Below are positions 23,091-59,913 of a stretch of 64,000 bases of DNA, one piece after another; the first letter of the stretch is position 1; each line of letters begins with the position of its first letter. This DNA is from a virus (lineage: Duplodnaviria > Heunggongvirae > Uroviricota > Caudoviricetes), in IMG/VR virus record IMGVR_UViG_3300012007_000010, positions 1 to 64,000 of that record; one strand, 5' to 3'. A model generated the notes under the pieces. The model was not told the DNA's origin. It searched no databases and saw only the letters and a program-made list of their open reading frames with translations. Position numbers and translations under genes: made by a program.

Positions 23091-23126
23091 ATTATATATA
23101 TTATACGGCACTGAGGTCAAGGGCAA
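23091..23126 (-). promoter_or_regulatory. late-promoter motif copy (TTGCCCTTGACC-N18-TATAAT) for the 1281-aa gene
   Basis: Minus-strand reading TTGCCCTTGACC tcagtgccgtataatata TATAAT. It is arranged as a palindrome with the plus-strand copy. Confidence 0.5.
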
Positions 23127-23138
23127 CACTCCTGCTTA

Positions 23139-23173
23139 TTGCCCTTGATGTTCGCTTTCTGTTCAGCGATATT
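23139..23173 (+). promoter_or_regulatory. late-promoter motif copy (TTGCCCTTGAT-N18-GATATT) for the 1163-aa gene
   Basis: ttgcccttgat gttcgctttctgttcagc gatatt, ~40 bp upstream of the ATG at 23213. Confidence 0.5.
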
Positions 23174-23212
23174 GTGATAGCAAATAAAAAATAAAAGGCG
23201 ATATACGATATT

Positions 23213-26200
23213 ATGGGACATTTAGCACTGGAAGTATTCGATTTGCCAACTAATGAGAATCCGAAGCCGACGGGCAGTAAGTATGCTGTGCTGTCAGAGA
23301 ACGCGAGTATCACCATCACCGACACGTCGGAGATATTCGGAAGTGGTGATGTTTGGTCATTTCCGTTCAAGCTTAACGTCAATGCCAATGCGCACATCTT
23401 CGGCACGGCGGGCGAGACGCACGGCTCGCGGCTGCACGAGCAGATAGATAAGCGCCGCGCCCGGCTATGGGTGGATGGCCTGCCGCTCTATCTCGGTTAT
23501 CTGAAACTCGGCGACGAAGCGGATGTGGACGCGAGTGGCGACGTGGATGTCAGCTTAGAGGCGGGAAGAAAAACTTTCGACGAGATGATAGAAGGGGCGA
23601 GTGCAAGAGATGTGAGCGTCGGCGACGTGGTGATAGGCGTGGCTCTGAACAGGAAACGCGTCATAACAATTAGTGACATTAACGTGAAATTTCGGCTCAA
23701 GAACTTACCTATAGACGATGTTAACGTAAGAAACGCCGTTGAAAGTTATATTTTCGAGCTCTCGGCAGGGGATTACGAATATCATTCCGCTCTTTCGCAT
23801 AGATGGCCAAAATTGGTGCTGTCAAAAGGCGAACTGACAGACTACACATCTGGAACAGGGGTTCCCGTTTCTTTTAATAAGACCAACATACAAAATCCTT
23901 ATGATGATAGTCACCCGTTTTGCAATGTCAACGTATGCTATCAGCGTAAACGGCAGAATGCGGATCTTAGTGAGACTACATTGCGCGACTATGTTATGCG
24001 ACTTGCCTATGGAAATGACACAACTACTGGTGGCGATGGACAAACACGTTTCAATAATGCACCAAATTTCTATCTTCTCTATTGGTTGAAGCGACTGTTC
24101 ATGGACCTTCATATTCAAGTCGTAGAAAATCAGATGCTCAACGTAGAAGACTTCCGACATGTATTTCTTGCCAATCTTGGCTGTTTTTACGAAGAGATGG
24201 ATAATGACAACGATACGACGGACAACTACTCGCAAGATAGTGCCGAATGGAAGAGGTATGGGAAATATTCCTTCCCTGATAGTTTTATTCTTGACCCAGA
24301 CAAGATATTTGCAGATGAACCAGGAAAAATCTATGTAAACAGCATTGATATAGAATCCGATATGTTTACTGAACATTTCCACGGAACTTATCATGGACAA
24401 ACGGGAGAGGTCACAGAAGTAACACAAACAATAAGGACAGAACCTATTAATGGATATCTTGCCTACGCAACAGGCGAGAATTATCCAAATGTGGAAATCT
24501 CGGAGATCATCGAGGCAACGGAGTCCGCATTTGGAGTAAGATTTCTTTTCAACAATGATTTCTCAGAAGTGCGCATAGTCCTGATAAGGAATATCTTAAC
24601 AAACAGAGCTGTAAAGGATTTGGACTGCGACATTATCGAAGAAACAAAAATAGAGAATAATATACGTGGGTTTAAGATGACTTACGGCCAAGGGAAAAGC
24701 AATGTTTCTTATTTTTACAAAGGGTTCGATGATATGCTCCCGAAGAAAAAAGTAATCTGGAAAGACAAAAGTGACAAACATGACTACTCGAATTGGAATC
24801 TAACTGCAAACTACAATGATGTAATAAACAATGTAACCGCTTTCGATAAGACATGCTATGTGACGCCGGATAACGGAAACGCATACGGCATAATGATTGA
24901 TGAAAAAGAAGATGTCTTTTTCCCCGCTGTCTTTGAATTTGCAGGATTCATGGATGCCTGCGATGGAGACTGTACTGAAGAAGGCACTACCATAGACACA
25001 AAGACGATCAATGCAACGCCTCTTATACCTAATAATATTAATGGTGATTATGCGGTTTTCTTTAATGGAGAGATGAAAGCACCTGGTGGGAAACATGAAG
25101 TAGCGGCCATGATTCCAATTAAATCTGTTGAATTAATACATGGATATAAACGTGTTTATAAAGGAACTGAACCCAGTGGCTGGGTTTCATTATGGGATGG
25201 TTACTATTTAGACTTGAAAAACGTAGAGATATATGTTAAAGAGGGATATTCATTGTCCCTCATGGATAACTATAGTTTCACAGGCAACGAAGGTACTCCA
25301 TTCGACAATGCCGACTTAGGGCTAAGCTTTGGGGTTATGCGTAGAGACGGAAGGAACTCTTCAATCATAAGCTATGAAGATCTGATCGAGGGAGAGGGAA
25401 ACTTTAACTGGGAGGTATCTCCGGACGGTGGTGCTATCATTCATCCCGATACCTGCGACAGTTATGGCAATGAATGGTATTATCACCCTGAGGAATCAGC
25501 AACAACTCTCACCGTCACAAGTCGAGAGGATGCTGTAAGGCTGTTAGAAAAAATGTTCCCAAGACGCAATGCACAATTTTATACGCCAGAACGAGGATAT
25601 ATAACCGGCTGTAATACACATGAATTATATGACTATGATGCTAATAGGGCATTCTATGCGATTACAGCCTGGTATCAATATTATCCCGTTACAGATCAAG
25701 ATATGGCAGATTGGTTATGGGAGATCACAATACTAAATAAAGATACACCGTTCTTTGCAATAAGAAGCATTGAAGCAGCCTATGAAGAAGATCGGAAACG
25801 GTGTAACATACTATTGGATTGTGGCTATGATGTTGATATTTCCCCAGGAAGAATAAAAACCATAGAAGATCTATTTAGAAAAGCCTATGGTCCTGATTCA
25901 CAAGAAGAGCATCCCATCATCATCGACAACGGTATAAGTGCGAGGTACGGGCGATTCTCACTCAAGCTACGGGCAGAGAAGCTGAACCCGTATTTCGACC
26001 CTTCTTTGCCAGATATCATTTCCACTAAAGATGCTGCAGGAAGAGCGATGAAAAGCATTTTCATAACAGCAAACACAGATTTGCTTTCTCGGCCAAGGAT
26101 CAGTGGCGCTGAGATGAAAGCTGCTGGATGGAACGATTTTGCCGATGGTGACTATGCCACGCTGTACAGTACGAGCTATTCGGTTTATTATGATACAGGT

Positions 26201-26704
26201 AAGGTGCATGAAATACTTTTTACCCCTATTCGCGAGGATGGAACGGTGCTTTCGCCAAGTCAACTCCAGAATTACGCTGTCGGATTTAATGGGCTGTCGG
26301 CTCATTCTATAGCTGCCAATGACACACAACATCTGGTACTCGACATAGACACTAATGACTCACGGGCGGAAATTCTGCATCAGCTTCAGGCAATCTATTA
26401 TGCCGCAGATGGAGAAATAGTTCCTACAGTAGATATAGGTAACACACGATATCTTAGTATCACTAATCCGAATCTGCGCAATCGTGGACTTTGCGATCAG
26501 TTCTACAAAGAATACTCATACTTGATACGTAATGGCCGTATTTGTAGAAAAAAGGTACGAATGGAGCTGGCTGTTCTGCTTTCCATAGACAAGACAAATC
26601 TTTATTGCGTCGGTGATATAACTGGATATATCCGCAAGATACAGTACACAGTAAGCAACAATACAGGACTTAATGATGTGACATTGGATATTATATATAT
26701 TTAA
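23213..26704 (+). CDS. large tail fibre-like protein (1163 aa) with a low-GC C-terminal ~1000 aa
   Basis: Long ORF. GC drops sharply from ~55% to ~40% at ~23650. The embedded antisense ORFs are AT-frame artefacts. Confidence 0.65.
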   Translation: MGHLALEVFDLPTNENPKPTGSKYAVLSENASITITDTSEIFGSGDVWSFPFKLNVNANAHIFGTAGETHGSRLHEQIDKRRARLWVDGLPLYLGYLKLGDEADVDASGDVDVSLEAGRKTFDEMIEGASARDVSVGDVVIGVALNRKRVITISDINVKFRLKNLPIDDVNVRNAVESYIFELSAGDYEYHSALSHRWPKLVLSKGELTDYTSGTGVPVSFNKTNIQNPYDDSHPFCNVNVCYQRKRQNADLSETTLRDYVMRLAYGNDTTTGGDGQTRFNNAPNFYLLYWLKRLFMDLHIQVVENQMLNVEDFRHVFLANLGCFYEEMDNDNDTTDNYSQDSAEWKRYGKYSFPDSFILDPDKIFADEPGKIYVNSIDIESDMFTEHFHGTYHGQTGEVTEVTQTIRTEPINGYLAYATGENYPNVEISEIIEATESAFGVRFLFNNDFSEVRIVLIRNILTNRAVKDLDCDIIEETKIENNIRGFKMTYGQGKSNVSYFYKGFDDMLPKKKVIWKDKSDKHDYSNWNLTANYNDVINNVTAFDKTCYVTPDNGNAYGIMIDEKEDVFFPAVFEFAGFMDACDGDCTEEGTTIDTKTINATPLIPNNINGDYAVFFNGEMKAPGGKHEVAAMIPIKSVELIHGYKRVYKGTEPSGWVSLWDGYYLDLKNVEIYVKEGYSLSLMDNYSFTGNEGTPFDNADLGLSFGVMRRDGRNSSIISYEDLIEGEGNFNWEVSPDGGAIIHPDTCDSYGNEWYYHPEESATTLTVTSREDAVRLLEKMFPRRNAQFYTPERGYITGCNTHELYDYDANRAFYAITAWYQYYPVTDQDMADWLWEITILNKDTPFFAIRSIEAAYEEDRKRCNILLDCGYDVDISPGRIKTIEDLFRKAYGPDSQEEHPIIIDNGISARYGRFSLKLRAEKLNPYFDPSLPDIISTKDAAGRAMKSIFITANTDLLSRPRISGAEMKAAGWNDFADGDYATLYSTSYSVYYDTGKVHEILFTPIREDGTVLSPSQLQNYAVGFNGLSAHSIAANDTQHLVLDIDTNDSRAEILHQLQAIYYAADGEIVPTVDIGNTRYLSITNPNLRNRGLCDQFYKEYSYLIRNGRICRKKVRMELAVLLSIDKTNLYCVGDITGYIRKIQYTVSNNTGLNDVTLDIIYI

Positions 26705-26715
26705 AGAAAATCACT

Positions 26716-27882: not shown

Positions 27883-27918
27883 CCTGCCCTTGATTTCGGA
27901 TTCCTATTTACCGATATT
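27883..27918 (+). promoter_or_regulatory. late-promoter motif copy (CCTGCCCTTGATT-N-GATATT)
   Basis: cctgcccttgat ttcggattcctatttacc gatatt, upstream of the 27967 gene. Confidence 0.5.
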
Positions 27919-27966: not shown

Positions 27967-28326
27967 ATGAATCAAGTAATGATTGACCTCTGGCCCCTGT
28001 TGGTGCCGATATTGCTGGCAGCCGTGGGATGGCAGTGGCGCGAGAATCACCAACTGAAGATCCGCGTGGCTGTACTGGAAACAACTGTTGAGAACTTAGA
28101 GACTACGTTGACGAACATACAGAAGCGGCAGGACTCGCAGTCGAAGAAGCAGGATGACATCCTCGACCGCATACAGTCGATGGAGTCGGAGGTGCTGGAA
28201 CGAATGGGCAAGACCGACAGCAGCATCTCGTCGCTGTCGGCGCAGGTGAAAGGCTTGCACGACCTGCTGGTAGTGTCGGACTTCGGTATTCACACCAAAC
28301 ATAACAGTCATGGGCGAGAAGATTAA
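27967..28326 (+). CDS. membrane-anchored coiled-coil protein (119 aa)
   Basis: N-terminal TM (LWPLLVPILLAAVGW) then heptad repeats. Confidence 0.5.
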   Translation: MNQVMIDLWPLLVPILLAAVGWQWRENHQLKIRVAVLETTVENLETTLTNIQKRQDSQSKKQDDILDRIQSMESEVLERMGKTDSSISSLSAQVKGLHDLLVVSDFGIHTKHNSHGRED

Positions 28327-28672
28327 GAACACTGGAAGCGAACTGAAGAACCGCTGGCTGATGAAGATGCCACGCTTCTTCCGCATGATAGCCATCGGTG
28401 CCATCAATATTATCGTGGCAGCTACGGCGGTCAACTTCGGAGTGCCCGCGCTTGGCGGAACACTCTATGAATGGTGGGGCGACGTCTATACCCACATTCT
28501 CGTTGGTGCCATCTGCACGCTCGTGACGTGCAAGGTGACGGTGGCCGGTGGCTACAAGAACATTGACACCGACGAGCTGCTGCGCGGAAAGATAGAGCGG
28601 CACATACAGATGGAACGCGACATAGACGAAGACACCGACGGCGAACAGCCGGGGGAAGGGCAAGAAGAGTAG
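28310..28672 (+). CDS. small membrane protein (120 aa, 2 TM) with acidic C-terminus
   Basis: MIAIGAINIIVAATAVNFGVPALGG and ILVGAICTLVTC hydrophobic helices. Confidence 0.5.
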   Translation: MGEKIKNTGSELKNRWLMKMPRFFRMIAIGAINIIVAATAVNFGVPALGGTLYEWWGDVYTHILVGAICTLVTCKVTVAGGYKNIDTDELLRGKIERHIQMERDIDEDTDGEQPGEGQEE

Positions 28673-28808
28673 TGTTTTCTTCATAGTATTTGCATGGGGC
28701 GTAGCGACGCCAGAAAATTGTTTTAGGTTAGTAATAGTTTTAGGTTTTTAGTTATTGGTAAAAAGGGAAGGCCGTTGCCCGTGATGGGTAGCGGCCTTCT
28801 GACTTTCC

Positions 28809-28843
28809 CTGCCCTTGACCGCTACGGGCTGACATCGTATCTT
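28809..28843 (+). promoter_or_regulatory. late-promoter motif copy (CTGCCCTTGACC-N18-TATCTT)
   Basis: ctgcccttgacc gctacgggctgacatcg tatctt, upstream of the 28876 ORF and the fibre operon. Confidence 0.45.
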
Positions 28844-28875
28844 ACCGTCAGATTGTTTCACGAATAAATACTATT

Positions 28876-33259: not shown

Positions 33260-34573
33260 ATGACCCTTCGAGAAAAAGCAACCATATTCAGGCATCAGTG
33301 CGACGTGATGGACGCTACCCGTAAGAATAAGCGCTACGGACGCGACTCCGTGGCCTTCGAGCGGCGTTGGGCCTCGCAGCTCTATAGCGACACGCAGGCA
33401 CGGCTGGGGCTTACGTTCCGGATAGAAGAGAATTACGTGTTCCTTACTTCGATTCCGCGCTGGCGGGAGATTTTTGCCACCTGCGCCTCCGGGCGCAACG
33501 CCGACCACGAACTGTGTGATGCACTGGAGCCGTATATTGAGCGCGAGTTGCACGAGCGCACGTTCAACAACCGCAAGAAGATGGGCAGCCAGGCAGCCAT
33601 CGACCGGGTTATGGAGGATGTCTTCGAGGTGACGCAGGGCTATACCCGTCCTGCCCGCATCATCAAGCTCGACCTCAAAGGATTCTTCCCTAATGCCAAT
33701 CTCGACGTTATGGAGCAGTTCTTCCTTCGCATCATCGACAAGTATCAGGACGACATCATTGCCAATGCTGGTATGTCGGGCGAATGTCCGCCGGCCTACG
33801 CCGCCGAATATCCTGCCTATCTGCGCTGGCTTGCGATGATTGTCATCCACTGCTGTCCCGCACGCCACTGTGAACTGCGCACGCCACGCACCCTCTGGCA
33901 TGAAAACATCGCCCCGGAGAAATCGCTCTTCGGCAAGCCCGACGGCATCGGTGCGCCAATAGGCCGTCTGCCGTCACAGAAAGGCATGGGTCTGTATGTG
34001 AACGACGAGGTGCGCTGGCTCAACGATGACTGCGGTGTGCGCACCACCTGCTTCATGGACGACTTCGTAATAGTAGTCACGGAAAGTCAGCATCGCTATG
34101 CGCTGTCACTTATACCAGCACTTCGTCGCCGGCTCGCCGCCAAAGGCGTTCGTCTGAACGAGAAGAAGTTCTACGACCAGCCATCCAAACGCGGGCTTGA
34201 GTTTCTCGGGTCACATATCCGCAACAACCGGCTGCACCTGAACGACTGCACCTATTGGCGCGGCATGGAGCGGTTGTGGTGGTTTAACGGCCTGTCGCCG
34301 GACTGGAAGTATCTGTTTCTTGAAAACTTCCTGTCGTCGGTCAACAGTTACTTCGGGCTACTGAAAACCCGCACAGACCACAAACGCCTGTTAGCACTGC
34401 TGCAGGTCGTCAATCTGGACTGGTGGTACTACTGCCACTACAATCCCCAACGCCAGTGCATCGCAGCCAACGAGAGTTACAGCCATCGCAACCTTATCAA
34501 CAGCAAATATCATTTATTAACCAACAAAAAGATTAAGCATTATGACACAACAGGAAAAGCAATCGCTGCTTAA
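33260..34573 (+). CDS. DGR reverse transcriptase (437 aa)
   Basis: RT motifs: IKLDLKGFFPNANLDVM (motifs 1/2), IGAPIGRLPSQ (DGR-RT signature GLPIGNLTSQ), FMDDFVIVV (YxDD box). Confidence 0.85.
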   Translation: MTLREKATIFRHQCDVMDATRKNKRYGRDSVAFERRWASQLYSDTQARLGLTFRIEENYVFLTSIPRWREIFATCASGRNADHELCDALEPYIERELHERTFNNRKKMGSQAAIDRVMEDVFEVTQGYTRPARIIKLDLKGFFPNANLDVMEQFFLRIIDKYQDDIIANAGMSGECPPAYAAEYPAYLRWLAMIVIHCCPARHCELRTPRTLWHENIAPEKSLFGKPDGIGAPIGRLPSQKGMGLYVNDEVRWLNDDCGVRTTCFMDDFVIVVTESQHRYALSLIPALRRRLAAKGVRLNEKKFYDQPSKRGLEFLGSHIRNNRLHLNDCTYWRGMERLWWFNGLSPDWKYLFLENFLSSVNSYFGLLKTRTDHKRLLALLQVVNLDWWYYCHYNPQRQCIAANESYSHRNLINSKYHLLTNKKIKHYDTTGKAIAA

Positions 34574-46677: not shown

Positions 46678-46691
46678 CAAGGGCAGGAGGA

Positions 46692-49600: not shown

Positions 49601-52600
49601 CCTGCCGTGCCAGTTCCTCGTTCTCGCGTCGGTACTTGGCGGCCAGCACACCCATCTTGTCGAGGTTGTCCTGCAGGTTCTTCGTGATGCCGTCGTATGG
49701 TCGCTCCTTGGCCAGCGTGTCCTCGATGAACTTCATCTGCTTTCCGATGGCCTGGGCAGCCTTCAGGAAGCTACGCTCCGCACTGAGGTCCATGTCCGAC
49801 TCCCACTTGTGGATCATAGCCGCCCCCTTCTCGCCCGTCTTGGCGATGTCCTTGGCAAACTTGTTGGTCCTGGCCACCGTGCCTCTGACGAACTCCACCG
49901 TGTCGCCTGTGCGCTCGCTGATGATACGGTAGATGGCATCCATCTCTTCCTTCGTCACCTCGCCGCTCTTGTCGGCATATATCTTCTGCAGTTCGGCGCG
50001 TCGCGTCTGCCACTCGTTTTCGTTCTGAATGGTGCGCCGCCACGCCTCGCCCTCGGTTATCTCCTCGTCGTTGCGGGCCTGCTCTATGCGCGTTTTGCGC
50101 TCCGTGTAGTAGGCATCCAGCTCGTGCAGGTAGGCATCTATCTCGTCGTGCCACTGTTTCTTGGCCGCCCGCTGTTGTTTTGGATCCTTCCAGTCGCCGG
50201 TGTTCGTCAGGTGGCGGGCGTGAAGCTCGTCCTGAATCTTCAGGCGCTCAGTGTTGTACCACTCGATGACCGTGCGCATGTCGCTCGACATACCCGCCTC
50301 GATGGCTTTCTTCAGAGCCTTGTCCTCTGCCAATACAGCCTTCACGTCGGTATCAGTCTGGATGGCGTTGACGAAGTCCTTCATCTGCTTGCGACGGTTC
50401 ACCAGCTGTTCAGCCGTCATGTTCTTCCAGTCGGTACTCTCGGCTGGAAGACGGTTGCCCCAGATGTTGTTCGTCTCAGTATCGAGCGTGCTGAAAGCAT
50501 CGAAGCCCTGCTGTATCTTGTCGCGTGCCCTCTGCAGGCGGCTGCTGTCGATGAACTTCTTGTTCTTCTCCAGCACGTCGGTCACAAACTGCTTGGTCTG
50601 CTGCTGCTCTGCCGTTTCCAGTTCGTCCACGTTCTCGTTCACTCCCTCCAGCGCACGGGCCAGTTCGGCATAGGCATCGTTGCGCTCCTTGGCCGACAGG
50701 TCGCTCTGCCGTAGCAGTGAAATCTGTGCGTTGATATTATCTTTCAACTGGCCGACGATAGTAGTGGTCGATTCTTTCAGGTCTTCCTCCGTAGCTCCGA
50801 GGTCTTCCTGATAGAGCCTGCCCGTCTTGGCATTCTCACGCTGCATGTCGAAGTACTCCTCCAGGTAGTCGCCACGAAGGTTGTTGCCCCAAAGTTCTTT
50901 CGAGGTAGTCCAGATGTATCGCCCCTTGCTCATGCCGTAGTCGCTCTTGTAGTAGTCGATACCGGTAATGTCCTTGATGGCATTGCGGTTCAGCCCGTAG
51001 TTCTGTTGCAGGTAGCGAGCCATCCATACGGCAGTCAGCTGTTCGAGCGAGGCATTGTCGTTATAGAGCGAGCCGAGATCTTTCTTCAGCTGGTCGCTGG
51101 CCACGAGGTCACCATTGGCATTGGTGGTGTAACTCTTCGACAACATCTTCCTGAAGGCCAGTCGTGCGCTGGCGGCCTGATCGCCCGTCATGCGGTCGTC
51201 CTCGGTCATCTGGCTCACGATTTTTGCCCAGTCGTCGCTCAGGTCGTCCTGGTGTTTCTTTTCGTTCTCTTCGATAGATGCCTGCTTCTGCTTCATCAGT
51301 ATCTCGCGGCGGATGGCAGCGGCAATCTTGTTGTGGGCAGCGGCCACCATCTCAGCGCGGTCGTACTCCGTGAGCATGAAGCCCAGGTACTTGCTGTAGT
51401 TCTGATTGATGTTGGCTATGGCGGTACGGTGGTTGTCGGTGGCTTTCGTCATGCGGATTTCCGCCTCGGTGGCTTTGTCCGTTCCGGCGGTCATCCCTTC
51501 GGTGGCTTTCCTGGCAGCATCCAGTTCCGCCGTGGTGTCCTTCAGATGGTCGAAGTACACACCCAGCTTCTCCGTAGCCCTGTCGGCCTCCTGATTGGCT
51601 TCGGCCAGTGCCTTCTTCTCTGCGTCCACACTGGTTACAATGTCGTATATCGCCTTGCCCAACGTATAGAGCAGGGCGATGACGGCCACGATGATGTTGG
51701 CCTTCATCGTCGTGTCGAGACCTTTCCATGCCGTTTTCAGTCCGTTGATGCTGAAGATACTCACCTTCGATGCGGCACCCATGCCGGAGATGGCTCCCGT
51801 GGCCGACTCCACGGCCTCGCCAGCCTGTTCGCCCGCCTCCTTGGCGTCGCTCAGTGCGTCGCCCATATCGCCCACCACGTCGGCAGCTTCTCCCACGCCC
51901 TCTGCCGCATCCGATATAGCATCGGTGGCGTTGGCTGCTTTTTCCAAATCTGCGGCAGCTTTCTGGGCGCTCTCTTTCAGGTAGTCGAACACGCTGCCCG
52001 CTGCCGCCGGTATGCTGGTCAGTCCGCTCTTGATGGCAACTACGGAAATGACGGTAGAGTTGAATGCCGTGTTGAGCGGTCCGCTTATCAGGTCAACGAT
52101 GACGCGCAGGGCGTCAATCACGCCGCCCAGCGCATTATTTGCCGACGTGCCTACCCACATCTCCTCGAACTGGTTCTTCAGTCGCTCCCACTTGGCGGCG
52201 GTCGTCTCGCTCATACGGTCGTACTCCTGCTGTATGGCAACATTCTCCTCATAGGCTTCGGCGGCTATACCCAGATGCTGGCGCAGCACATCGACGTTCT
52301 GCGACAGTCCGGCGAACACGATACCGGCGCGTGCTCCCTGCTGGTTCAAGTCCTTCATGATGTCCTGCATACCGCCCATGCCCAGCATCTTCTCAATGTC
52401 GTCGGGGTTCATGCCCGCATCCTTGATGTGCTGGAAGATGGCAAGCATGGCGTTCATGCCGCCGCCTGCCTCGTCGAACATCTTGCGCAGGGCCTCGGGA
52501 GCCATGCCGATAGCCTTGGCCACCTCGAAGGCGTTATTCCTGATGGCGGGAATCATTCGCGACAGGGCCGTGGCCGACATCTCGACTCTCATACCAAGGG

Positions 52601-55600
52601 CATCAACCGTAGAACCGAGGGCTGCCACCTGGTCGATGGTGATGCCGCTCTGAGCACCCACGGCTCCCACACGTTTTACGAAGTCCGTAATCTGTGGAGC
52701 GGCGGCGGCTGAGTTGGCACGCAGTTGGTCGATGGTCGAAGCGATTTTCTCCATAGCCACAGCCGTTGCGCTGCTGCCCTCTATCAGTCCCTTGTCCATA
52801 TCCTTCTTAATCCTGTTCACCTCGCCCGTAGCCAGAGCCACCTTCATCATCTGCGTGGCACCGTCGGCTCCCATTTCAGGCAGGGCGACAAGCATCTTAT
52901 TGGCAGCCTCGGTGAAGCCCAGTATGTCCTCCTCAGTCTTCAAACCCAGCTGTCCGGCCTTGGCACTCAACTCGGTCAGAGCTACCAATGTAGTCCTCGT
53001 ATCAAGGTCTCGCAGTCTGTCCGTCAGCCTGCCTACCTGTTCGGCGGTCATCTGCGTGGTCTTGCCCACCTCGCCCATGCGGTCGGAGAGTTGCATCAAG
53101 TCGCCCAGCGTGCCAGATACTTTCTGCCACAGTTCATTGAAGCCCATATACATCACGACATAGGTCTTCAGGCGGCTGAAGGCTTTCTCCCATGCGGTGG
53201 CGCTGGCCTTGGCCTGACCCTCCATCTCCTTCATCACGTTCTTGGCGTTGCGCACCTGCTCGGCGAAACGCTTATATTCGTCGCTGTTCTGACCGAGCGA
53301 GTCCTGCATCTGGCGCAGTTGTCCGTCGGCGCGTTTGATGGCGGCCCGCAGCTCGTCGAGGTTCACGGCGTTGGCGGGTGTCTCTATCAGCGTCCGCATC
53401 TTCTCCTGCGACATGTTGACGTTGTCTTGCTCGAACTTCAGCGAGCGCAGCTTCTTCGTCAGGTCGTCGAGTTCCTTCTCCTGAGCGTCCACGGCGTTGT
53501 CCAGGTCGCGCTCGGCCCTTATCTGGCGTATCAGTTCCTCGCGGCGGCGCTCCAATGCCTGCGTGGCCTGCTGTATCTCTTGCGCACTGGCGGCAAATCC
53601 TTTCTTGCCAGCGCCATCGGCAATCTTCTGCGCGTCGGCCAGCTTCATCCACTCGCCCGTGGCCTCCTTCAGCTCCTTGTTCATCTCGCCGATGGTCTTG
53701 CGCAGCTCCTCCCACCGTTTCTGCCCGTCGGCGGTAGAGCGGTCCTGAGCCATCGCCTCGGCCTCCAGCACCTTGATACCCTCCTGCATCTCCTCGCGGG
53801 TCATGCGGCGGGCCTTCTGCACCTGCTCCTCTACCTCCACCAGTCCGAGGGCTTCGGCCTTCTGCTGCTTGTAGTAGTCGAGCCGTTCTTTGGCACTGTC
53901 AAGATACCATTTGTTCATGGTCACCAGTTCCCTTGCACCCACACGGTGGTCTTCATCCCCCTCAATCTCGTCATTGAGTTTGCGCATCTTCTTTCTGTCG
54001 CTATCGCCAAACATGGCGCGGCCAAGAGAAGAACGGTTCCTTACTTTCTCTGACAACTTATCGCGCTGGGCTTCAAGCGAGGCAAGCCTTTCCTCGGCTT
54101 TCTTTACTTCCTTCTCCCAGCGGTCTATGTCTTCGGTTGCCTCTTTGATGTTGTCATCAAACACCGACACATGCTGGCTCAGCTGCTCGTCAATCGACTG
54201 CCCCGACGTGGTGACCACCGTGCCTTTCATGTGCTCGCTGAACCGTGCTATCACCGCGTCTGCATTCTCAAAGGCAGCCTTCGCCTTGTCGGTCTTGCCC
54301 TTCAGTGCGTCGAGCTGGGCGGTGAGTTTCTCTATCTCTGCGGTCACGTCGTCAAACGTGCCTTTGCCGCTGGTAGATGGATTCTCAATGAGAGCTCTAT
54401 ACGCTTTCAGGCGCTTGATGGCTTCGTCGAGCTGGTCCATGCTGGCACCGTCAAACCCGCCAGTCTGCGACTTTGCCAGCGTCGCCTGTTGTTCCTGCAG
54501 CTCGTCGGCATCCTTCTTCGCCTTGCGGGCGATCTCTATACTATATTTGTTAAGGTGTTCCTCGGCGGCGACAATCTTCTTTGTTAGCTCCGTAGCTTCG
54601 GTGCTACCCGACTTATACGATGCAGCCAACTGCTTGGCGGCCTCGATAGCCTCGCGAATTTCGGCGGTGCTGTAGTCTCTCAGGTTGCCGTTCAAGCGGG
54701 CGGCACGCTCTTCGCGGGTGACGGATGCCTGCTGCTCCTGCAGAGCGATGGTGCGCTCCAGTTCGTAGCGGTAGCCTGCCAGACTCTCCTTGGCGGTCTT
54801 GGGATCGTCAATGAGCCGCTGCCAGTACTGCTGCTGTGTCTTCAGCGCCGACTCCGAGAGAGACGTGCCTTGGTCGAGCTGCTGGCGCATCAGCTGGTCC
54901 TGTTCCTTGCGGCGCTGTGCGGCTTCCTCCAAAGCCTGCGCCTCGCGGCGTGCGCTTCGCTCTGCCTCTATGCCGTACTGCTTCAGGTGCTCCTCTGCAT
55001 CGAGGATGGCCTGCGACAGGCGCCTGGCAGCAGGACCGCCGGAGTCGTAGGTATCGATTAGCCGACGGCCTGCCTCGATAGCGGCACGTATATCCTCGCC
55101 GTTCTTCTTGCTCAGGTCGCCGAACAGTGTGCGCACCTGCTGCTTGTCGGCAGTGCGGCGGCGCTCGCTCTCTATATCGTTGATGCGTTTCAAGGCTGCC
55201 TCGGCATCGCGTGCTTCGTCGCTTCCGCGCTTGGCACCGTCGGCCATAGCCTGCCAGTAGCGCTTCACCTCGGTCAGTCCAGCGGTGGAGAGGTTGTTCA
55301 GGTCGCGCATCTGCTCGTTAATGTACTGTGCCTGGATGTTTGCCTTGCGGCGGTTCTCCTCGTTGGTGAGTGCCTTGACGGCCAACTCGGCTTTCTTGTA
55401 GGCTGCAGATGTCTGGCTGACACCGTCGCGCACGGTCTCCCAGTAGCGCTTTGTCTCGGCAAGGTCGGCGGTAGATAGCTTTTCCAGGTTGTTCAGGCGC
55501 TTGCGCATCGGGGCCTGTATCTCCTGGCGGCGTTTCTCCTCCTCCTTGGCAACCTTCTCCAGGTTGCGCTCATATTCCTTCAGTTCCGTGCTGCCGTGCT

Positions 55601-58600
55601 CGGCGCCGGTTATCATTCCCTGCCAGAACTTCTTCGTCTCTTGCAGGGCGTCGGCAGAGAGATTGCGGATGTTACCCATGCGCTGGGTCATCATGTCGAG
55701 CACGGGCTGCTGCTTCAGGCGGTCGAGCTCTGCCTGATACTGGCGTATGAGTCGGGCATTCTTGACCCACTCCTCGCTCTCGGGCTCGATGGCGCGGTTC
55801 CTGGCTTCGAGCACCTTGACAGCCTCGGTCATGGTGTCGATGGTGAGCCGCTGTGCCTGAACTTGCTTCTTCTGGGACTCCAGTCGCTTCTCGGCGTTAT
55901 CGTCAATCTTCTGGTCATATTCTGCCAACGCCTTGCGACCCTCGTTCACCTTGTCGTTCAGTTTGCCTTGCTCGAACTCAGACTTCTTCAGCTTCTCACT
56001 CTCCTTATCCAGAGCGTCGGCATTCTTACCGTGGGCCTGTGAGAGTTCTTCGGTCATCTGACGGGCTTCGCTGCGGTTGTTATTGGCGCGTACATCGGCA
56101 GCGGCGGCAGCCTCTTCCTTCTTGGTTATCTCGTCAATCTTCTGTCCGCGCTTAGCCTCCAGCTCCTGTTTCTTCTGCTCCAGGGCGATGCGCTTCTGGT
56201 CTTGCTCGCTCAACTGCTCCTGCTGCTTGGCGGCATCACCCTCGGCGTTGGCTTCCTCCTTCACGGCCTTGGTGGTGTCCTCCAAGGTCTTCTTTTTGCG
56301 GCCACGGCTCTTGGCGCCTTTCTCTACAGCCTCCGTCTCCTGGTTCTGGGCGGCGGTCGATTTCTGGGTCTCCTCAGTGGATATGCCCATCATCTTCGTC
56401 AGGTCACTTACCGACTTCTCCCAGAGCTTCTTCAGACGGTTCTTGTCGGCTCTTGCCTTCTTGACCACGTTCTCGTTGTAGTCGTCAATCTCGTCCTTCA
56501 GTTGAGCCTTGGCGAGGGCGGCGTCAGTACCGCTACTGGGCAGGCTGGCATAGCGCTGCCGCATATCTTTCAGCTTTTTGTCAGCCTGCTCATATTCCTC
56601 GTTCATCTTGTCGAGGGCTGCCTTGCGGCGCATCACCTCTGCCTCCTGTGCCTTTATGGCGTCGGTCTGGTCCTTCGTGGCCTCGGTGGCATCCTTGGCG
56701 GCATCGGCTCCGCGACGGGTGGCATCGCTCACCTCGTCGGTGGCCTGCTTCACACCCTTGCTCACATCGACGAGCGCCTTTGCTTTCTCAATACGGGCAT
56801 CGTAAATATCCTTGACATACTGGATATGGACAGAGCCCACATCGGCACTAAGGTCTACGTCGCCGCCCATGAACATACCGTCCTTGCCTTGCAGGATTTT
56901 TTTGAGCAGCGCCTTGGCATTGGTCTTGTCATCCTTCCAACCGTATCGCTGCTGGAAAGCAGACACCAGGGCATCCACCTGACTGCCAGCCAGCGAGAGG
57001 GAACCGTTGTCGTTCTTGATCTTGCCAATCGTTCTCATCTTGCCAATCAGGAACTGCTGCACCTCCTCTGGGTCCGACATGTGCAACTTGCCAGCCTTGT
57101 AGCCCACGGTCGAAACCTTCTTGGCTTCTTCGAGGGCGGCTTTGGCTTCCTCCTGACTCATCTGCCTGACAGCCTCTGTCTCAGCTTTGATAGTCGCGAT
57201 GCGCTCCTTCTGCGCGTCGGTGAGCCTAACGGTCTTCTGCGTCAGCCCTTCAGTGGCAGCCGCTTGGCCGTTCCTCATCTTCATGGTCTGTATGGAGATG
57301 TCGTGCGACTCCTTCTGCGCCGCTTCGAGTTCTGCTTCCACGTCGGCGAGGGTGCGTTTCTTCTCTGTATCCTCCTCCACGGCCTTCACCTCACCGTTGA
57401 TAACGGCGGTCAGGTCTTTTATCTCCTTGCTATAGGCGGCAACCTTCGGCACGTTCTCCTCGACGTTCATGAAGAACTTATTCATGAAGCCGCTCTTTAC
57501 CAGTCCACCGCCCGACATAAGTTCCCTGACGGCAGCCATTGCCTCACCCTCTCCCTCTATGCCGTAACGCTCCTGGAACTTGCCCAGCAGCTGACTGATT
57601 TTCTCCGGACTGCTCTCGATAGACATGATGGTCTTGCCCATGTTGGCGGGGTTGATTTCTCCCAGCGCGTCGAAGAGATACCGCTGTGCCTCTTCGCGGT
57701 TGCCTATTTGCCACTTCTCACCCTCTTTCTTAAAGGTGGCCAGCTGCTGCTTCTGGTCGAGCATGGCCTGCGCCTGCTCCTTACTCAGGTCTTTGTAGGC
57801 GTTGGCTTCCTCCTTGACGGCAGCGGCGTTCTTCTCCTGCGTGGCGAGCATCTGCTTGCGTTCCTCGTTGAGCGCAGCTATCTTTATCTTCAGTTCGTCG
57901 TTGCGCTTTATCAGCGACTCCACTGTTACCTTTTCGTTCTCTGCAGCTTTAGCGGCAGTCTCGCCGGCCTTCACCTCCTTCTCCTTGGCAGCGGTGTTTT
58001 CCTCCGTGGCTTTGGTCTCTTCCTTCTTGGCGGCTGCTGAATCCTTAGAGGTCTGCTGTTCCTTCTTGGCGGCTTCGGCACTCTTGTCGGTAGACTGTGC
58101 CTCCTTCTCTTTGGCGGCACTAACTTTATCCGCAGACGCACCGGCAGCGGCAGGACCTGCCGACGTGCTCATCTTGGCGAGTTCTTCATTCACCTGCTTC
58201 AGTTCGTCGTCAATCCCCTTGACCTCGGTCTTCATCGTCTCGGCAGCCTCGCGGAAGCTCTTGGCGTTGTTCTCGTAGGCGGTCGCCTCCTGGTTCAGCT
58301 TGTCTATATTCTTCTGCTTGCGTTCGGCATCCTTCTTCTCGTTGTCGATGCGGTCCTGGATAGCGGCCACCACCTTGCGCTGTTTCTCCACCTCCTTGTC
58401 CTTGGCGATGGCGTTGGCAGCGTCTATCGACACCTGCTTGGCCTTCTCGTCGCGCTCGGCCTTCAGTGCGGCGATGTTCTCGGTGCGCTGTTTCACCTCC
58501 GCCTCGGCCTCCTTGCGCTGACGGGCGGCTTCCTCCACCCCCTTGCGGGTGAGCTGGCTGCTGCGCTCGCGGGCATCGTTGGCATCCACGATGGCACCCG

Positions 58601-59255
58601 TCAGGCGCCTCTCGTCATCGGTCTGCTGCTTGATGGCGGCATTTACCTGCTTCAGTATGTCGTTATACTCCAGCCACTCGTGGCTCATGTGGGGCAGCAG
58701 TCGCATCAGCTCCTGTATGCCGTCGGCCTCCTGCTTCAGGTCCTGCGACGAGATCTTACTGCCCTCTTTCCCGATAGACTGCAACATCTGCTCGGTGCGC
58801 AACTTATACTTCGCCAGGTTCTCCAGGTTCTTCTGCTGCAGGGCGTCCAGCTCCGCCATGTTCTTCTGGTAGTCCTTTGTGCCGGGCAGCAGTGCCTTCT
58901 TCGCGTTCTCGGCGGCATTATAGGATGCCTTCTGAAAGGCGGCGCTCATCTGGTCGAGCGTGCCTGTGTTGAAGGCGTCGATGGCACGCGAGAGGGTGGT
59001 CACACCCTTGGCGAGCGTGTTCATCGCGGTCTCGAATGATTTAAGTTCCCGTTCCTGCGTTCTCAGCTTCGCGCCGAGCTTGTCGAGTTCTTCCTGCGAC
59101 TTGCCCGTCTTGATGCCGTCGCTGATGGCAGTCTTGGTCTTCTCAACCTCAGTGCGCATGCTCTTGGCCGATTCGCGCAGCGCGTCCATGGCAGGGTTGG
59201 CCTTGGCGGCGTTGGCGCGGAAGTCGATGCTGATAATTTCGTGTCTGGATGCCAT
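46692..59255 (-). CDS. giant tape-measure-like protein (4187 aa)
   Basis: A single uninterrupted 12.5-kb ORF. The N-terminal ~2500 aa is almost pure coiled coil with ~55-aa tandem repeats (NLS..L.E(T/V)KRYWQ.M.DG...GS). The central Ala/Gly/Met-rich region resembles tape-measure core regions. The C-terminus has hydrophobic TM-like helices (LPAILAECLKIHPIAGAAIFAALTGVLGGLMGIAASKIG) and Gly-rich segments. The many antisense ORFs inside it are GC artefacts. Confidence 0.65.
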   Translation of the reverse strand: MASRHEIISIDFRANAAKANPAMDALRESAKSMRTEVEKTKTAISDGIKTGKSQEELDKLGAKLRTQERELKSFETAMNTLAKGVTTLSRAIDAFNTGTLDQMSAAFQKASYNAAENAKKALLPGTKDYQKNMAELDALQQKNLENLAKYKLRTEQMLQSIGKEGSKISSQDLKQEADGIQELMRLLPHMSHEWLEYNDILKQVNAAIKQQTDDERRLTGAIVDANDARERSSQLTRKGVEEAARQRKEAEAEVKQRTENIAALKAERDEKAKQVSIDAANAIAKDKEVEKQRKVVAAIQDRIDNEKKDAERKQKNIDKLNQEATAYENNAKSFREAAETMKTEVKGIDDELKQVNEELAKMSTSAGPAAAGASADKVSAAKEKEAQSTDKSAEAAKKEQQTSKDSAAAKKEETKATEENTAAKEKEVKAGETAAKAAENEKVTVESLIKRNDELKIKIAALNEERKQMLATQEKNAAAVKEEANAYKDLSKEQAQAMLDQKQQLATFKKEGEKWQIGNREEAQRYLFDALGEINPANMGKTIMSIESSPEKISQLLGKFQERYGIEGEGEAMAAVRELMSGGGLVKSGFMNKFFMNVEENVPKVAAYSKEIKDLTAVINGEVKAVEEDTEKKRTLADVEAELEAAQKESHDISIQTMKMRNGQAAATEGLTQKTVRLTDAQKERIATIKAETEAVRQMSQEEAKAALEEAKKVSTVGYKAGKLHMSDPEEVQQFLIGKMRTIGKIKNDNGSLSLAGSQVDALVSAFQQRYGWKDDKTNAKALLKKILQGKDGMFMGGDVDLSADVGSVHIQYVKDIYDARIEKAKALVDVSKGVKQATDEVSDATRRGADAAKDATEATKDQTDAIKAQEAEVMRRKAALDKMNEEYEQADKKLKDMRQRYASLPSSGTDAALAKAQLKDEIDDYNENVVKKARADKNRLKKLWEKSVSDLTKMMGISTEETQKSTAAQNQETEAVEKGAKSRGRKKKTLEDTTKAVKEEANAEGDAAKQQEQLSEQDQKRIALEQKKQELEAKRGQKIDEITKKEEAAAAADVRANNNRSEARQMTEELSQAHGKNADALDKESEKLKKSEFEQGKLNDKVNEGRKALAEYDQKIDDNAEKRLESQKKQVQAQRLTIDTMTEAVKVLEARNRAIEPESEEWVKNARLIRQYQAELDRLKQQPVLDMMTQRMGNIRNLSADALQETKKFWQGMITGAEHGSTELKEYERNLEKVAKEEEKRRQEIQAPMRKRLNNLEKLSTADLAETKRYWETVRDGVSQTSAAYKKAELAVKALTNEENRRKANIQAQYINEQMRDLNNLSTAGLTEVKRYWQAMADGAKRGSDEARDAEAALKRINDIESERRRTADKQQVRTLFGDLSKKNGEDIRAAIEAGRRLIDTYDSGGPAARRLSQAILDAEEHLKQYGIEAERSARREAQALEEAAQRRKEQDQLMRQQLDQGTSLSESALKTQQQYWQRLIDDPKTAKESLAGYRYELERTIALQEQQASVTREERAARLNGNLRDYSTAEIREAIEAAKQLAASYKSGSTEATELTKKIVAAEEHLNKYSIEIARKAKKDADELQEQQATLAKSQTGGFDGASMDQLDEAIKRLKAYRALIENPSTSGKGTFDDVTAEIEKLTAQLDALKGKTDKAKAAFENADAVIARFSEHMKGTVVTTSGQSIDEQLSQHVSVFDDNIKEATEDIDRWEKEVKKAEERLASLEAQRDKLSEKVRNRSSLGRAMFGDSDRKKMRKLNDEIEGDEDHRVGARELVTMNKWYLDSAKERLDYYKQQKAEALGLVEVEEQVQKARRMTREEMQEGIKVLEAEAMAQDRSTADGQKRWEELRKTIGEMNKELKEATGEWMKLADAQKIADGAGKKGFAASAQEIQQATQALERRREELIRQIRAERDLDNAVDAQEKELDDLTKKLRSLKFEQDNVNMSQEKMRTLIETPANAVNLDELRAAIKRADGQLRQMQDSLGQNSDEYKRFAEQVRNAKNVMKEMEGQAKASATAWEKAFSRLKTYVVMYMGFNELWQKVSGTLGDLMQLSDRMGEVGKTTQMTAEQVGRLTDRLRDLDTRTTLVALTELSAKAGQLGLKTEEDILGFTEAANKMLVALPEMGADGATQMMKVALATGEVNRIKKDMDKGLIEGSSATAVAMEKIASTIDQLRANSAAAAPQITDFVKRVGAVGAQSGITIDQVAALGSTVDALGMRVEMSATALSRMIPAIRNNAFEVAKAIGMAPEALRKMFDEAGGGMNAMLAIFQHIKDAGMNPDDIEKMLGMGGMQDIMKDLNQQGARAGIVFAGLSQNVDVLRQHLGIAAEAYEENVAIQQEYDRMSETTAAKWERLKNQFEEMWVGTSANNALGGVIDALRVIVDLISGPLNTAFNSTVISVVAIKSGLTSIPAAAGSVFDYLKESAQKAAADLEKAANATDAISDAAEGVGEAADVVGDMGDALSDAKEAGEQAGEAVESATGAISGMGAASKVSIFSINGLKTAWKGLDTTMKANIIVAVIALLYTLGKAIYDIVTSVDAEKKALAEANQEADRATEKLGVYFDHLKDTTAELDAARKATEGMTAGTDKATEAEIRMTKATDNHRTAIANINQNYSKYLGFMLTEYDRAEMVAAAHNKIAAAIRREILMKQKQASIEENEKKHQDDLSDDWAKIVSQMTEDDRMTGDQAASARLAFRKMLSKSYTTNANGDLVASDQLKKDLGSLYNDNASLEQLTAVWMARYLQQNYGLNRNAIKDITGIDYYKSDYGMSKGRYIWTTSKELWGNNLRGDYLEEYFDMQRENAKTGRLYQEDLGATEEDLKESTTTIVGQLKDNINAQISLLRQSDLSAKERNDAYAELARALEGVNENVDELETAEQQQTKQFVTDVLEKNKKFIDSSRLQRARDKIQQGFDAFSTLDTETNNIWGNRLPAESTDWKNMTAEQLVNRRKQMKDFVNAIQTDTDVKAVLAEDKALKKAIEAGMSSDMRTVIEWYNTERLKIQDELHARHLTNTGDWKDPKQQRAAKKQWHDEIDAYLHELDAYYTERKTRIEQARNDEEITEGEAWRRTIQNENEWQTRRAELQKIYADKSGEVTKEEMDAIYRIISERTGDTVEFVRGTVARTNKFAKDIAKTGEKGAAMIHKWESDMDLSAERSFLKAAQAIGKQMKFIEDTLAKERPYDGITKNLQDNLDKMGVLAAKYRRENEELARQGKEPKYSNEQITAQSYDEMAFYLRQAADAYSIDIDELLRRMVKEGMTATAEEISKSDMLKQAVMGQLRKTYQEVQDAVKKEASQIKKDVEIIWNDDARGIGGMSMKATFDKALAQLGMQQDSVSRANSLIGAGAASDNVASRLAMKQIEVQMRMQKAQYDMYRVQANQRMAALKAEAEEHRRLAKQMEKENHLAESKRELLMATNAERDAENVRLSLGLTLAEETKKQEQQKAELLKIQEESQNRLYTSLREWADLLTSSLQGVFEASHAGDAEYYNELAKLNLTGKGGPGAGTYVVIDDAGTSDAKAHYEYLDERQALERQHEIEVQNAQAEAWRKLMDDLNKKMSETITDQINAMLQNQSIDANTQAVIANTQALWAQVGQGASTGFTDASQLKRDENGFALDGSGQIIAPIQPTEPAQTEQPTSYWPIGDTEQKPMWTATDPANTAATDANTQAVNALTQALGGQAPAASTPADVPAAPALAPAGGETADGVFLQKPFFQMTEEEKAQAMTAIGELWQAYNEGGVEAMTQMAASLAEIPGVVLPPWQIREDELEAVMERMGTLWQSYADQGIAAMQQMSDAMAEMPNKIPDPTQLTEEHVETATQNAANMYNSVANANISASNHATEAILENQQKIKQGENQTSKQMTQSTGNMFAKMTQAANLYGIAYQAMSNDNLSTEQKFQMIALQTAGQTAIAMLTTNWSKDQSKVAGSLPAILAECLKIHPIAGAAIFAALTGVLGGLMGIAASKIGKHKSEISQATGASVSAGRLATGMLTYKTGNVNELTDPASLTPGRQYNVDGADGKTYRARYMGKGAKTHITNGPEFHLVGEAGPEAIIDARTTRLMRMDDTGIWRDIQTLYNGGSISGLSTRRRRGTGVRAFADGNIGEFEDMADGGGLTAEGTGGMGMEQMLTALDRNSAIQEALLERLNQPIYARNIWTGPEGIPNMYNKMQKEAQRHGEKYL

Positions 59256-59288
59256 AATCGTATGTTGTGTTTTTGCGTTGTCCTTATA

Positions 59289-59852
59289 TTATCGTGAAAC
59301 CTTGTCGCGGGTACTGGCCCAGAAGAGGGCGCGGTTGATGGCGTTGCGCCCCTCGACGGTGTCGCCTGCCGAGAAGACCATATACACCAGTCCGGCGAAG
59401 GAGAAATACTTCGTGGCGTAGGCGGCGAAGTGTTTGGCCTGCGTGCGCATCTCGGCCACTACATGCGGGCGACCCTTCATCTTGCGGGTTGGGATGGCAA
59501 TGGGCTTCCACTTCTTATGCGGGATGGCGGGCACGGGACCGTTATAGGGGTTGTTGAAACCGACGCCGAGCTCCAGAAACTTGGCGTAGTAGATGTAGCG
59601 GGCGCGGAACACCTGCTCGTCGCCCCCGCTGGCGGCGAAGGTCATCCACTGCAGCGATCGCCTGAGCTGTCCGCTGCGCTCGTTGATTACTCGTCCGTAG
59701 TTATCCATCGTGCGGTCGTGGGCAATCTTCTGGAAATTGTTTATCCACCGCATGATGTGGTCGTCGTGCCAGTTCCATTTCCACGACAGTACTTTGTCGC
59801 CGTACTTGTCGCCTATCCAGCTGGCGCCTTGCATCTCAGATATGAGGTCCAT
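59289..59852 (-). CDS. hypothetical tail-associated protein (187 aa), co-transcribed with the giant gene
   Basis: W/Y-rich ORF 33 bp upstream of the giant gene. It has its own late motif. Confidence 0.5.
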   Translation of the reverse strand: MDLISEMQGASWIGDKYGDKVLSWKWNWHDDHIMRWINNFQKIAHDRTMDNYGRVINERSGQLRRSLQWMTFAASGGDEQVFRARYIYYAKFLELGVGFNNPYNGPVPAIPHKKWKPIAIPTRKMKGRPHVVAEMRTQAKHFAAYATKYFSFAGLVYMVFSAGDTVEGRNAINRALFWASTRDKVSR

Positions 59853-59878
59853 CGTATTTACTCCTTTTTTTTGTGGGG

Positions 59879-59913
59879 AAGATAGAGCGCGGAGGGGCCG
59901 GAATCAAGGGCAG
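59879..59913 (-). promoter_or_regulatory. late-promoter motif copy (CTGCCCTTGATTCC-N-TATCTT)
   Basis: Minus-strand ctgcccttgat tccggcccctccgcgctc tatctt. Confidence 0.45.

Follow-up and report, generated by a model that had tools for sequence, protein, structure and literature searches.

The window analysed here is the 64-kb stretch at positions 1 to 64,000 of IMG/VR record IMGVR_UViG_3300012007_000010, a virus of the class Caudoviricetes, and the element in question is a bipartite, promoter-like motif that lies before its virion, fibre and lysis genes. The early operon occupies the left 17.5 kb on the minus strand and encodes a primase-like protein, a homologue of translation initiation factor IF-1, an exonuclease and YopX proteins, with methylases further on. 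The genes behind the motif sites are two fibre-sized genes, a holin/spanin-like pair (27967 and 28310, with matches to spanin and membrane-protein PHROGs), an S49 protease/scaffold gene (43502-45382; PF01343, PHROG 53), a putative capsid gene which comes next after the protease and carries an InlB B-repeat insertion, a gene for a protein of 391 amino acids (aa), and an operon containing a 4187-aa gene (Table 1). Proteins were annotated by Pfam and PHROGs, and most proteins of the window match neither. The original prediction had listed nine copies of a late-promoter-like motif; its assignments of genes to copies are right as far as testable, with the proviso that the capsid gene (41967-43406) is identified only by its position.

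Both strands of the window were searched with CTGCCCTTGAT, with mismatches allowed, and then with the invariant core. There are 11 copies of the core 9-mer TGCCCTTGA (box in oligonucleotide form, TGCCCTTGATT) when both strands are counted, compared with about 0.5 expected from length alone. Nine of these copies are the sites listed previously, all noncoding and accompanied by a -10-like hexamer; the copies at 7558 (+) and 15707 (-) lie inside coding sequence, have no -10-like element and were rejected as promoters. The bipartite pattern TGCCCTTGM-N20-ANNTT yields nine matches versus 0.04 expected (100 dinucleotide shuffles, none of which gave more than one). Two additional, weaker sites at 34825 (+) and 60776 (-) combine the variant box TGCCCTTGC with TATCTT at the canonical distance directly before genes, so that the window holds 11 promoter-like sites, nine with TGCCCTTGA and two with TGCCCTTGC. 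In a position-weight scan, eight sites score 24-35 bits and the TGCCCTTGC sites 15.4 and 10.8 bits, the remainder being at 5 bits or less. The curated gene map assigns 90.3% of the window to coding sequence; the noncoding 9.7% contains all 11 sites, each of which aims at the adjacent gene, with predicted 5' untranslated regions (5'UTRs) of 0-52 nt. Most of the predicted coordinates are right within 1 nt (27884 rather than 27883, and 45450 rather than 45451), and the minus-strand site placed at 46677 exists, its box spanning 46676-46686. Copies were not found at similar density in coding sequence or before early genes. A generic scan for sigma-70 promoters and terminators showed no enrichment and was uninformative.

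For the first logo, the sites of the window were combined with those of eight related contigs, which were found via the protease gene and not via the motif. The consensus is y-TGCCCTTGA-y-t, then 16-17 variable bases, then s-kAwaTT-g-c-r-G, and after that a strongly preferred A. With this A as +1, TGCCC is located at -40 to -36, TTGAyt at -35 to -30 and the hexamer at -12 to -7; the box TGCCCTTGA spans -40 to -32, includes TTG at -35 to -33 and usually continues with y-t. Textbook sigma-70 geometry is TTGACA-N17-TATAAT with the start 7 nt later, and the predicted layout of the sites is this sigma-70-family geometry plus a 5-bp upstream extension. The two elements had been described as exactly 18 nt apart in every copy. 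This holds for eight of the nine, in which the hexamer lies 18 nt past TTGAY, equivalent to a 17-bp spacer between hexamers; at 23126 (-), TATAAT is at 19 nt, and the low score of this site in the fixed-spacing matrix is due to the 1-nt shift of the hexamer. The same site is one half of a divergent back-to-back pair. This pair (23116-23149), previously regarded as a palindrome within 23091-23173, is real, and appears to be not a single palindromic site but two promoters that are independent of each other. The leaders are short and A-rich and contain no Shine-Dalgarno sequence.

The box is asymmetric, without dyad symmetry, and its copies stand singly and independently. Divergent back-to-back pairs are found in seven places, with 1, 6, 6, 8, 8, 8 and 14 bp between the boxes. 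Such gaps of only 1-14 bp indicate that nothing upstream of -41 is required and that each box is independent.

In relatives identified by protein homology (protease 50-92% identical), the 391-aa, protease, capsid and 40112-like genes are preceded by the box and the hexamer in synteny with the window, and the intervening spacers have diverged. Both elements are retained at orthologous late genes even when the proteins are just 50-65% identical. In the eight contigs L001-L008, the syntenic protease site (P45450) is present in all eight and the capsid site (P43499) in seven, being missing in L008; a site orthologous to P40064 is present in L001, L006, L144 and L232. Contig L145 has the ortholog of P59913, and its ortholog of gene 60146-60736 has the full TGCCCTTGA box. 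The final census was confined to protein-anchored DNA (38 loci plus the window; 770 kb); an IMG/VR DNA-pattern scan, in which clade sites were mixed with chance matches in unrelated coding sequence, was left out of the final logo. The census includes 70 unique cores, 59 of which have a -10-like hexamer, and in 56 of those 59 the hexamer is at one identical offset. A-11 and T-7 are each conserved in 100% of the census sites, T-8 in 88% and A at the predicted +1 in 88%, and the first ATG follows 1-65 nt after +1.

Early-gene loci were anchored on g63 (the first early gene) and g369, covering about 500 kb of 22 related contigs. In the g63 loci, all motif sites are on the fibre/lysis side of the divergent control region and none is in the early operon. 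The 15 g369 loci, with about 300 kb of early operon, contain a single site, which adjoins a fibre-module gene; with this apparent exception placed, early operons proper have no motif site in about 300 kb. The early operon of the window likewise has no promoter-like site. Clade-wide retention and the absence of sites from early operons bear out the earlier proposal of a separate promoter class limited to virion, fibre and lysis genes, and the sites very probably constitute a clade-wide late promoter class. The boxes also lie where mosaic modules meet, for instance between genes that differ greatly in identity, which would favour a function other than that of a promoter: an operator for a repressor, a signal for processing or anti-termination, or a site of recombination or at a module boundary. 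The second block with A-11 and T-7 at a fixed 17-bp spacer, the A at +1, the strict orientation and the divergent pairs are predicted by a promoter but not by such elements, and a non-promoter function is improbable.

The window matches a wolf-gut scaffold of 138 kb in ENA, and rumen and gut metagenomes contain its relatives, on contigs of about 95-146 kb; GenBank phages gave no relative at the DNA or the protein level. Contigs with the motif include IMGVR_UViG_3300031994_000025, 3300032030_000015, 3300011989_000005, 3300028591_000109, ENA WOLF17-1 scaffold_40 and JAFZZI010000005.1, and relatives without it include the L190 lineage (OCTX012277611.1). One clade member, which has five motif sites, was binned in a metagenome-assembled genome of Bacteroidaceae. 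The leaders without Shine-Dalgarno sequences and the host-type promoters in the window point to a Bacteroidota host, and the clade is indicated to be one of large uncultured phages of Bacteroidota (Bacteroidales) in gut and rumen.

The consensus for the Bacteroidota primary sigma factor, sigma-ABfr, is TTTG (-33) and TAnnTTTG (-7) with variable spacing, and this sigma is said to do without classical -35/-10 boxes (PMC7366714). The host-type promoters in the window fit the sigma-ABfr consensus (PMC7366714; Table 1). Late sites resemble sigma-ABfr promoters in having TTG near -33 and a TAnnTT -10 region about 20 nt apart, and in their A-rich leaders without Shine-Dalgarno sequences (PMC7366714). 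The TTG-to-TA distance is 20 nt in the late sites, the same as in two of three host-type early promoters, and 19 nt in the third. Unlike sigma-ABfr promoters, late sites have TAwaTTGC, TGCCC and A-y-t flanking the TTG, and rigid spacing. The TAnnTTTG octamer is absent from all 11 late sites of the window, where the consensus is kAwaTTGC. Nor do these sites have the -33 TTTG element: cTTG is embedded in the invariant 9-mer, at rigid spacing. The statement that the motif is unlike the housekeeping promoter was thus correct in part: the TTG/TAnnTT geometry is shared, whereas the TG of TAnnTTTG is missing, TGCCC...A is invariant and spacing is rigid.

The copies are interpreted as late promoters of this phage and of the whole clade, the most likely reader being the host sigma together with a phage specificity factor (probability of this overall reading roughly 0.6). 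In the proposed mechanism, host core RNA polymerase would initiate at the late sites only late in infection. The host primary sigma would contact TTG and TAnnTT with the same geometry as at the host-type early promoters of the phage, and the late -10, devoid of the TG of TAnnTTTG, would make the polymerase dependent on a phage-made specificity factor. This factor would recognise the invariant TGCCC upstream of TTG and A-y-t downstream, and might be a monomer adjoining sigma region 4, acting as a class-II-type activator or as a sigma-appropriation factor comparable to T4 MotA/AsiA; alternatively, it might be a phage sigma with a sequence that does not yet reveal it as one. A phage specificity factor is suggested by the missing TG together with the added invariant box. 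Host primary sigma with a phage factor is favoured because the TTG-to-TA distance is shared and because the late -10 corresponds to the host element minus its 3' TG (TAnnTT-GC versus TAnnTT-TG); lack of this TG would be the kind of defect that gives activator dependence. The narrower proposal of host sigma-A plus a phage activator or appropriator is plausible, at somewhat less than even odds.

Several points weigh against host sigma plus a phage factor. Promoter function itself is deduced from sequence, and the likeness of the late -10 to the host element could just reflect any -10 of the sigma-70 family. Host promoters have variable spacing (PMC7366714), unlike the rigid late sites; a fixed spacer with a long invariant -35 is typical of promoters for alternative sigma factors, including those of extracytoplasmic function (ECF) type, rather more than of activator-dependent housekeeping promoters. 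The reader scan covered about 60 open reading frames (ORFs) of the window, 10 kb on either side and 117 ORFs of six sibling early operons, and no candidate reader was identified in the scanned ORFs; about 74 kb of the genome is outside the window and mostly unscanned, which limits these negatives. In the 117 sibling ORFs, which include methylases, a helicase, a sliding clamp and anti-defence genes, Pfam detected no sigma or helix-turn-helix activator domain. The early proteins g369, g12993, g63 and g17025 have no Pfam, PHROG or PDB match, and the structural model of g12993 matches no known fold.

Rigid spacing and a long -35 would fit an unrecognised phage-encoded alternative sigma about as well, and this is the main rival explanation: such a protein would replace the host sigma and read TGCCCTTGA as -35 and kAwaTT as -10. 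The sites are bipartite with a single offset in 56 of 59, the -35 is long and invariant, and the back-to-back pairs indicate that sequence upstream of -41 is not needed, all of which would suit a sigma factor. Phage sigma factors such as T4 gp55 and phiEco32 gp36 are often too divergent for Pfam, and clade-universal proteins of unmatched fold, g12993 and g369, are present. However, late-site geometry coincides with that of the host-type promoters, the model of g12993 is unlike sigma domains, and the only sigma-like protein in the scanned DNA is an accessory ECF-like one (see below). A replacing phage sigma is considered unlikely.

A new type of factor, without detectable similarity to sigma, MotA/AsiA or Mor, might retarget Bacteroidota RNA polymerase; this idea is tentative and somewhat doubtful. 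Candidates would be clade-universal early proteins such as g12993 or g369; the proteins in this class are g63, g17025, the primase, g12993, IF-1 and g369. The 152-aa protein g12993 (12993-13451, -) is among the most widespread early proteins, being present on 18 of 22 related contigs sampled, and a profile search gave 179 homologues, several of them on contigs of more than 95 kb. Its AlphaFold model (pLDDT confidence score 85) has a beta-hairpin and long helices. Profile searches of g369 and g12993 against PDB gave no informative match. If such a factor exists, it would direct the polymerase to E. coli sigma-70-like promoters (TTGAyt-N17-TAtaTT) with a TGCCC extension, and would represent the first sigma-appropriation-like system to be described for Bacteroidota.

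The box does not vary among phages with early proteins of just 30-60% identity, which is in favour of a reader encoded by the host, i.e., an alternative sigma of ECF type or the reader of the B. thetaiotaomicron 'PM2' -10/-30 motif. Consistent with this, a second class of Bacteroides promoters, characterised by -10 and -30 elements, is unexplained (PMC7366714). Nevertheless, it would be unusual for all virion genes to depend on a stress sigma of the host, and TGCCCTTGA does not occur at -40 in the examined part of the transcription start site table of B. thetaiotaomicron, which is a different host species. A host-encoded alternative sigma as the reader is distinctly improbable.

The window itself encodes a sigma factor. 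The gene at 2729-3619 (-) specifies a 296-aa protein that matches Pfam Sigma70_r4_2 with 28.8 bits (cutoff, 25.7). The family has 99 homologues, of which the full-length ones are nearly all about 290-300 aa, with a few shorter fragments; its profile matches M. tuberculosis SigE over sigma2 and sigma4 (E = 7e-5), and the best Foldseek matches of its AlphaFold model (pLDDT 85.6) are nearly all ECF sigma factors. The product is therefore a genuine ECF-like sigma2 plus sigma4 factor, with an N-terminal, beta-rich extension of about 130 residues that has weak HNH_3-like signals. As a candidate for the reader of the motif, it has in its favour this genuine domain structure, the location of its gene in the early operon, and the situation in L145, in which a sigma gene (product 52% identical) is about 1 kb upstream of two motif promoters serving the same operon as in the window. 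The phyletic pattern speaks against it. The motif-bearing siblings L238 and L251 have no sigma gene next to g369, and an unrelated ORF of about 190 aa takes the place of sigma and g119, a 119-aa gene. The window order is g369, sigma, g119, g114, and the flanks of this slot in the two siblings are 85-88% (g369) and 92-95% (g114) identical (85-96% overall). In 26 early-operon loci (L227-L252), the hidden Markov model of the sigma family found no match (E <= 10). When all IMG/VR contigs were scanned with the two best-conserved peptides, the sigma was located on six contigs, none of them motif-bearing, and 44 sigma-bearing metagenome loci (274 kb, mostly early regions) contain no motif. In L190, protease and capsid relatives adjoin a sigma gene (product 53% identical), and there is no motif; elsewhere, the sigma gene adjoins integrases in small elements. 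The ECF-like sigma was therefore rejected on phyletic grounds, namely motif-bearing siblings without the gene, and is very unlikely indeed to be the reader.

Sigma and g119 form a 1.25-kb unit (2373-3619, -) between g369 and g114. Elsewhere, this unit is found beside the late operon in L145 and beside integrases in L132 and L134. On the basis of the phyletic pattern (absence from siblings, the IMG/VR scan, the sigma-bearing loci and L190), the unit is a mobile accessory cassette, dispensable for the late promoters, and not the reader. The g119 gene adjoins sigma in the window, L130, L138 and L145; it was rejected as a specific partner of sigma, as its 37 IMG/VR loci are mostly without sigma and mostly without the motif. 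The region 1393-11154 of L130, an unrelated phage contig of 41% GC with a distant sigma homologue, contains a different regulatory repeat, 17 intergenic copies of a short hairpin followed by gCTATTAACC-N10-AACTTTAnAAnTATG, before almost every small gene. In L134, about ten tandem 15-bp repeats CAGCAGATTTCCGGT (9399-9545) adjoin the integrase gene and are iteron-like.

Other candidates were considered. A Mor-like protein, which the original prediction had named as a possible binder of the box, was not found in the approximately 60 ORFs scanned, and the asymmetric box in single copies is unlike the dyad sites of Mor/C. For MotA and AsiA, there was no Pfam or PHROG match in the approximately 60 window and 117 sibling ORFs, although analogues need not be homologous. 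Of the proposed dedicated late-transcription system with an activator or alternative sigma, the separate late class stands, Mor was not found and the ECF-like sigma of the window drops out. A 139-aa protein (5803-6222, -) has a C-terminal domain resembling that of the RNA polymerase alpha subunit (alpha-CTD; PF03118, 32 bits), keeps the GKKS motif and an R265-equivalent residue, and could act on transcription. It was rejected as a clade-wide reader: homologues occur only in a few siblings (L083/L246, L240 and L148), with none in a scan of close relatives. The divergently encoded Cro/CI-type helix-turn-helix protein (17793-18323) looks like a conventional repressor.

Table 1. Predicted late promoters and host-type promoters of the window
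Site	Position	Strand	Gene(s) served	Box and -10 element	Score (bits)
P23126	23085..23126	-	1256-aa fibre gene 19284-23054	box TTGCCCTTGAC 23116-23126; TATAAT at 19 nt, ATATAA at 18 nt	
P23139	23139..23180	+	1163-aa fibre gene 23213-26704	box 23139-23149; GATATT 23168-23173; +1 near 23180	32.8
P27884	27884..27925	+	holin/spanin-like genes 27967-28326, 28310-28672	GATATT 27913-27918	27.9
P28809	28809..28850	+	plus-strand operon from 28876	box CTGCCCTTGAC; TATCTT 28838-28843	24.4
P34825	34824..34865	+	gene 34894-35283	variant box TGCCCTTGC; TATCTT	10.8
P40064	40064..40105	+	167-aa gene 40112-40615	GATATT 40093-40098; predicted 5'UTR 7 nt	33.6
P43499	43458..43499	-	479-aa putative major capsid gene 41967-43406	TAAATT	35.1
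P45450	45409..45450	-	S49 protease/scaffold gene 43502-45382	TATAAT	28.4
P46686	46645..46686	-	391-aa gene 45456-46631	GATATT	35.2
P59913	59872..59913	-	187-aa gene 59289-59852 and 4187-aa gene behind	TATCTT	29.9
P60776	60736..60777	-	196-aa gene 60146-60736	variant box TGCCCTTGC; TATCTT	15.4
Host-type promoter	18399-18429	+		TTG-N19/20-TATCTTTG / TATCTTTGC	
Host-type promoter	60828-60857	+		TTG-N19/20-TATCTTTG / TATCTTTGC	
Host-type promoter	62999-63029	+		TTG-N19/20-TATCTTTG / TATCTTTGC	
Host-type promoter	17718	-		TACTTTTG	

Several of the sites have particular surroundings. A hairpin, GGCCG...CGGCC, is located at about 28768-28803, 5' of P28809; P34825 is directly 3' of a reverse-transcriptase gene, and P46686 starts 6 nt past the stop codon of the 4187-aa gene. 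At P60776, the predicted +1 is the A of the ATG of the gene it precedes, and the mRNA of this gene may thus be leaderless. Between that gene and P59913, a perfect hairpin rich in G+C, with a T-run after it on the minus strand (60027-60063), looks like an intrinsic terminator that would insulate the two neighbouring late transcription units. The host-type promoters at 18399 and 62999 share a longer, near-identical stretch, GCGGTTCG..A..T.ATGCTTATCTTTGC, which suggests that a second phage-specific family of early or moron promoters might exist. The gene driven by the 18399 promoter is low in GC (44%) and has a signal-peptide-like start at 18467.

Among the other genes, the 4187-aa ORF of the late operon (46692-59255, -) has no Pfam match; its relatives in siblings are 31-84% identical, and the L145 version, of 3023+ aa, gives a weak PhageMin_Tail match. 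The reverse-transcriptase gene (33260-34573, +; PF00078) is within the structural module and is probably part of a diversity-generating retroelement. Three YopX-family paralogues are encoded in one genome (4789-5265, -; 5338-5748, -; and 62563-62940, +). The IF-1 homologue (12729-12950, -; PF01176, E = 8e-23) is found on 14 of 22 related contigs sampled, with 53-95% identity. Early operons of siblings L238-L250 encode, according to Pfam, a DNA polymerase III beta clamp, a DnaB-like helicase, radical-SAM proteins, a HicA toxin, and Tad2/Tad3-like proteins of Thoeris anti-defence.

Bacteroidota are dominant gut and rumen bacteria, and to our knowledge almost nothing is known about the timing of gene expression in their phages. 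The motif provides a precise, sequence-level marker of late genes for an uncultured clade with genomes of about 95-146 kb, and aids annotation of genomes in which over 80% of the proteins are without a match. At about 45 bp, the promoters are compact; they look strong, and their sequence is orthogonal to that of host promoters. Together with their reader, they could serve controlled expression in Bacteroidales. The question posed is what reads TGCCCTTGA on a polymerase with a non-classical primary sigma. Phage-specific late promoters are a well-known kind of element; new here are the sequence and the host phylum, and no paper describing a TGCCCTTGA late-promoter motif was found in the literature. 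Also new is a classical-looking -35/-10 promoter in a host said to lack such promoters (PMC7366714).

Besides the sigma-ABfr promoter, three known systems are the closest comparisons. The sites of Mu Mor/C and P2 Ogr resemble those described here in being activator-dependent late promoters with weak core elements, the activator being a proposed one in the present case. Those sites are dyad-symmetric, bound by dimers, and placed upstream of or overlapping the -35, whereas the present box is asymmetric and single, with 1-14 bp between divergent neighbours, and no Mor family protein is encoded by the scanned ORFs. The promoters of phage sigma factors (phiEco32/7-11 gp36, SPO1 gp28 and gp33/34, and T4 gp55) similarly have a phage-specific consensus repeated before middle or late genes and are detectable by motif search alone; the SPO1 late -10 is also GATATT. 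Unlike in the clade studied here, where the sole sigma-like gene is in an accessory cassette missing from siblings, a cognate sigma is encoded in every genome of those systems.

T4 middle promoters combine a MotA box with a sigma-70 -10 and are used via sigma appropriation by AsiA and MotA. The present sites differ from these in that the box is centred at about -36 rather than -30 and keeps a -35-like TTGAyt, in that the scanned ORFs have no detected MotA/AsiA homologue, and in that the host belongs to Bacteroidota, whose primary sigma differs from sigma-70. Similarities with T4 middle promoters include an asymmetric 9-bp phage box in the -35 region, at a fixed distance from a -10 of the sigma-70 family (TAnnnT). 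Further likenesses, which here are read from the sequence, would be the use of host RNA polymerase, a temporal class of genes and the dispensability of upstream sequences.

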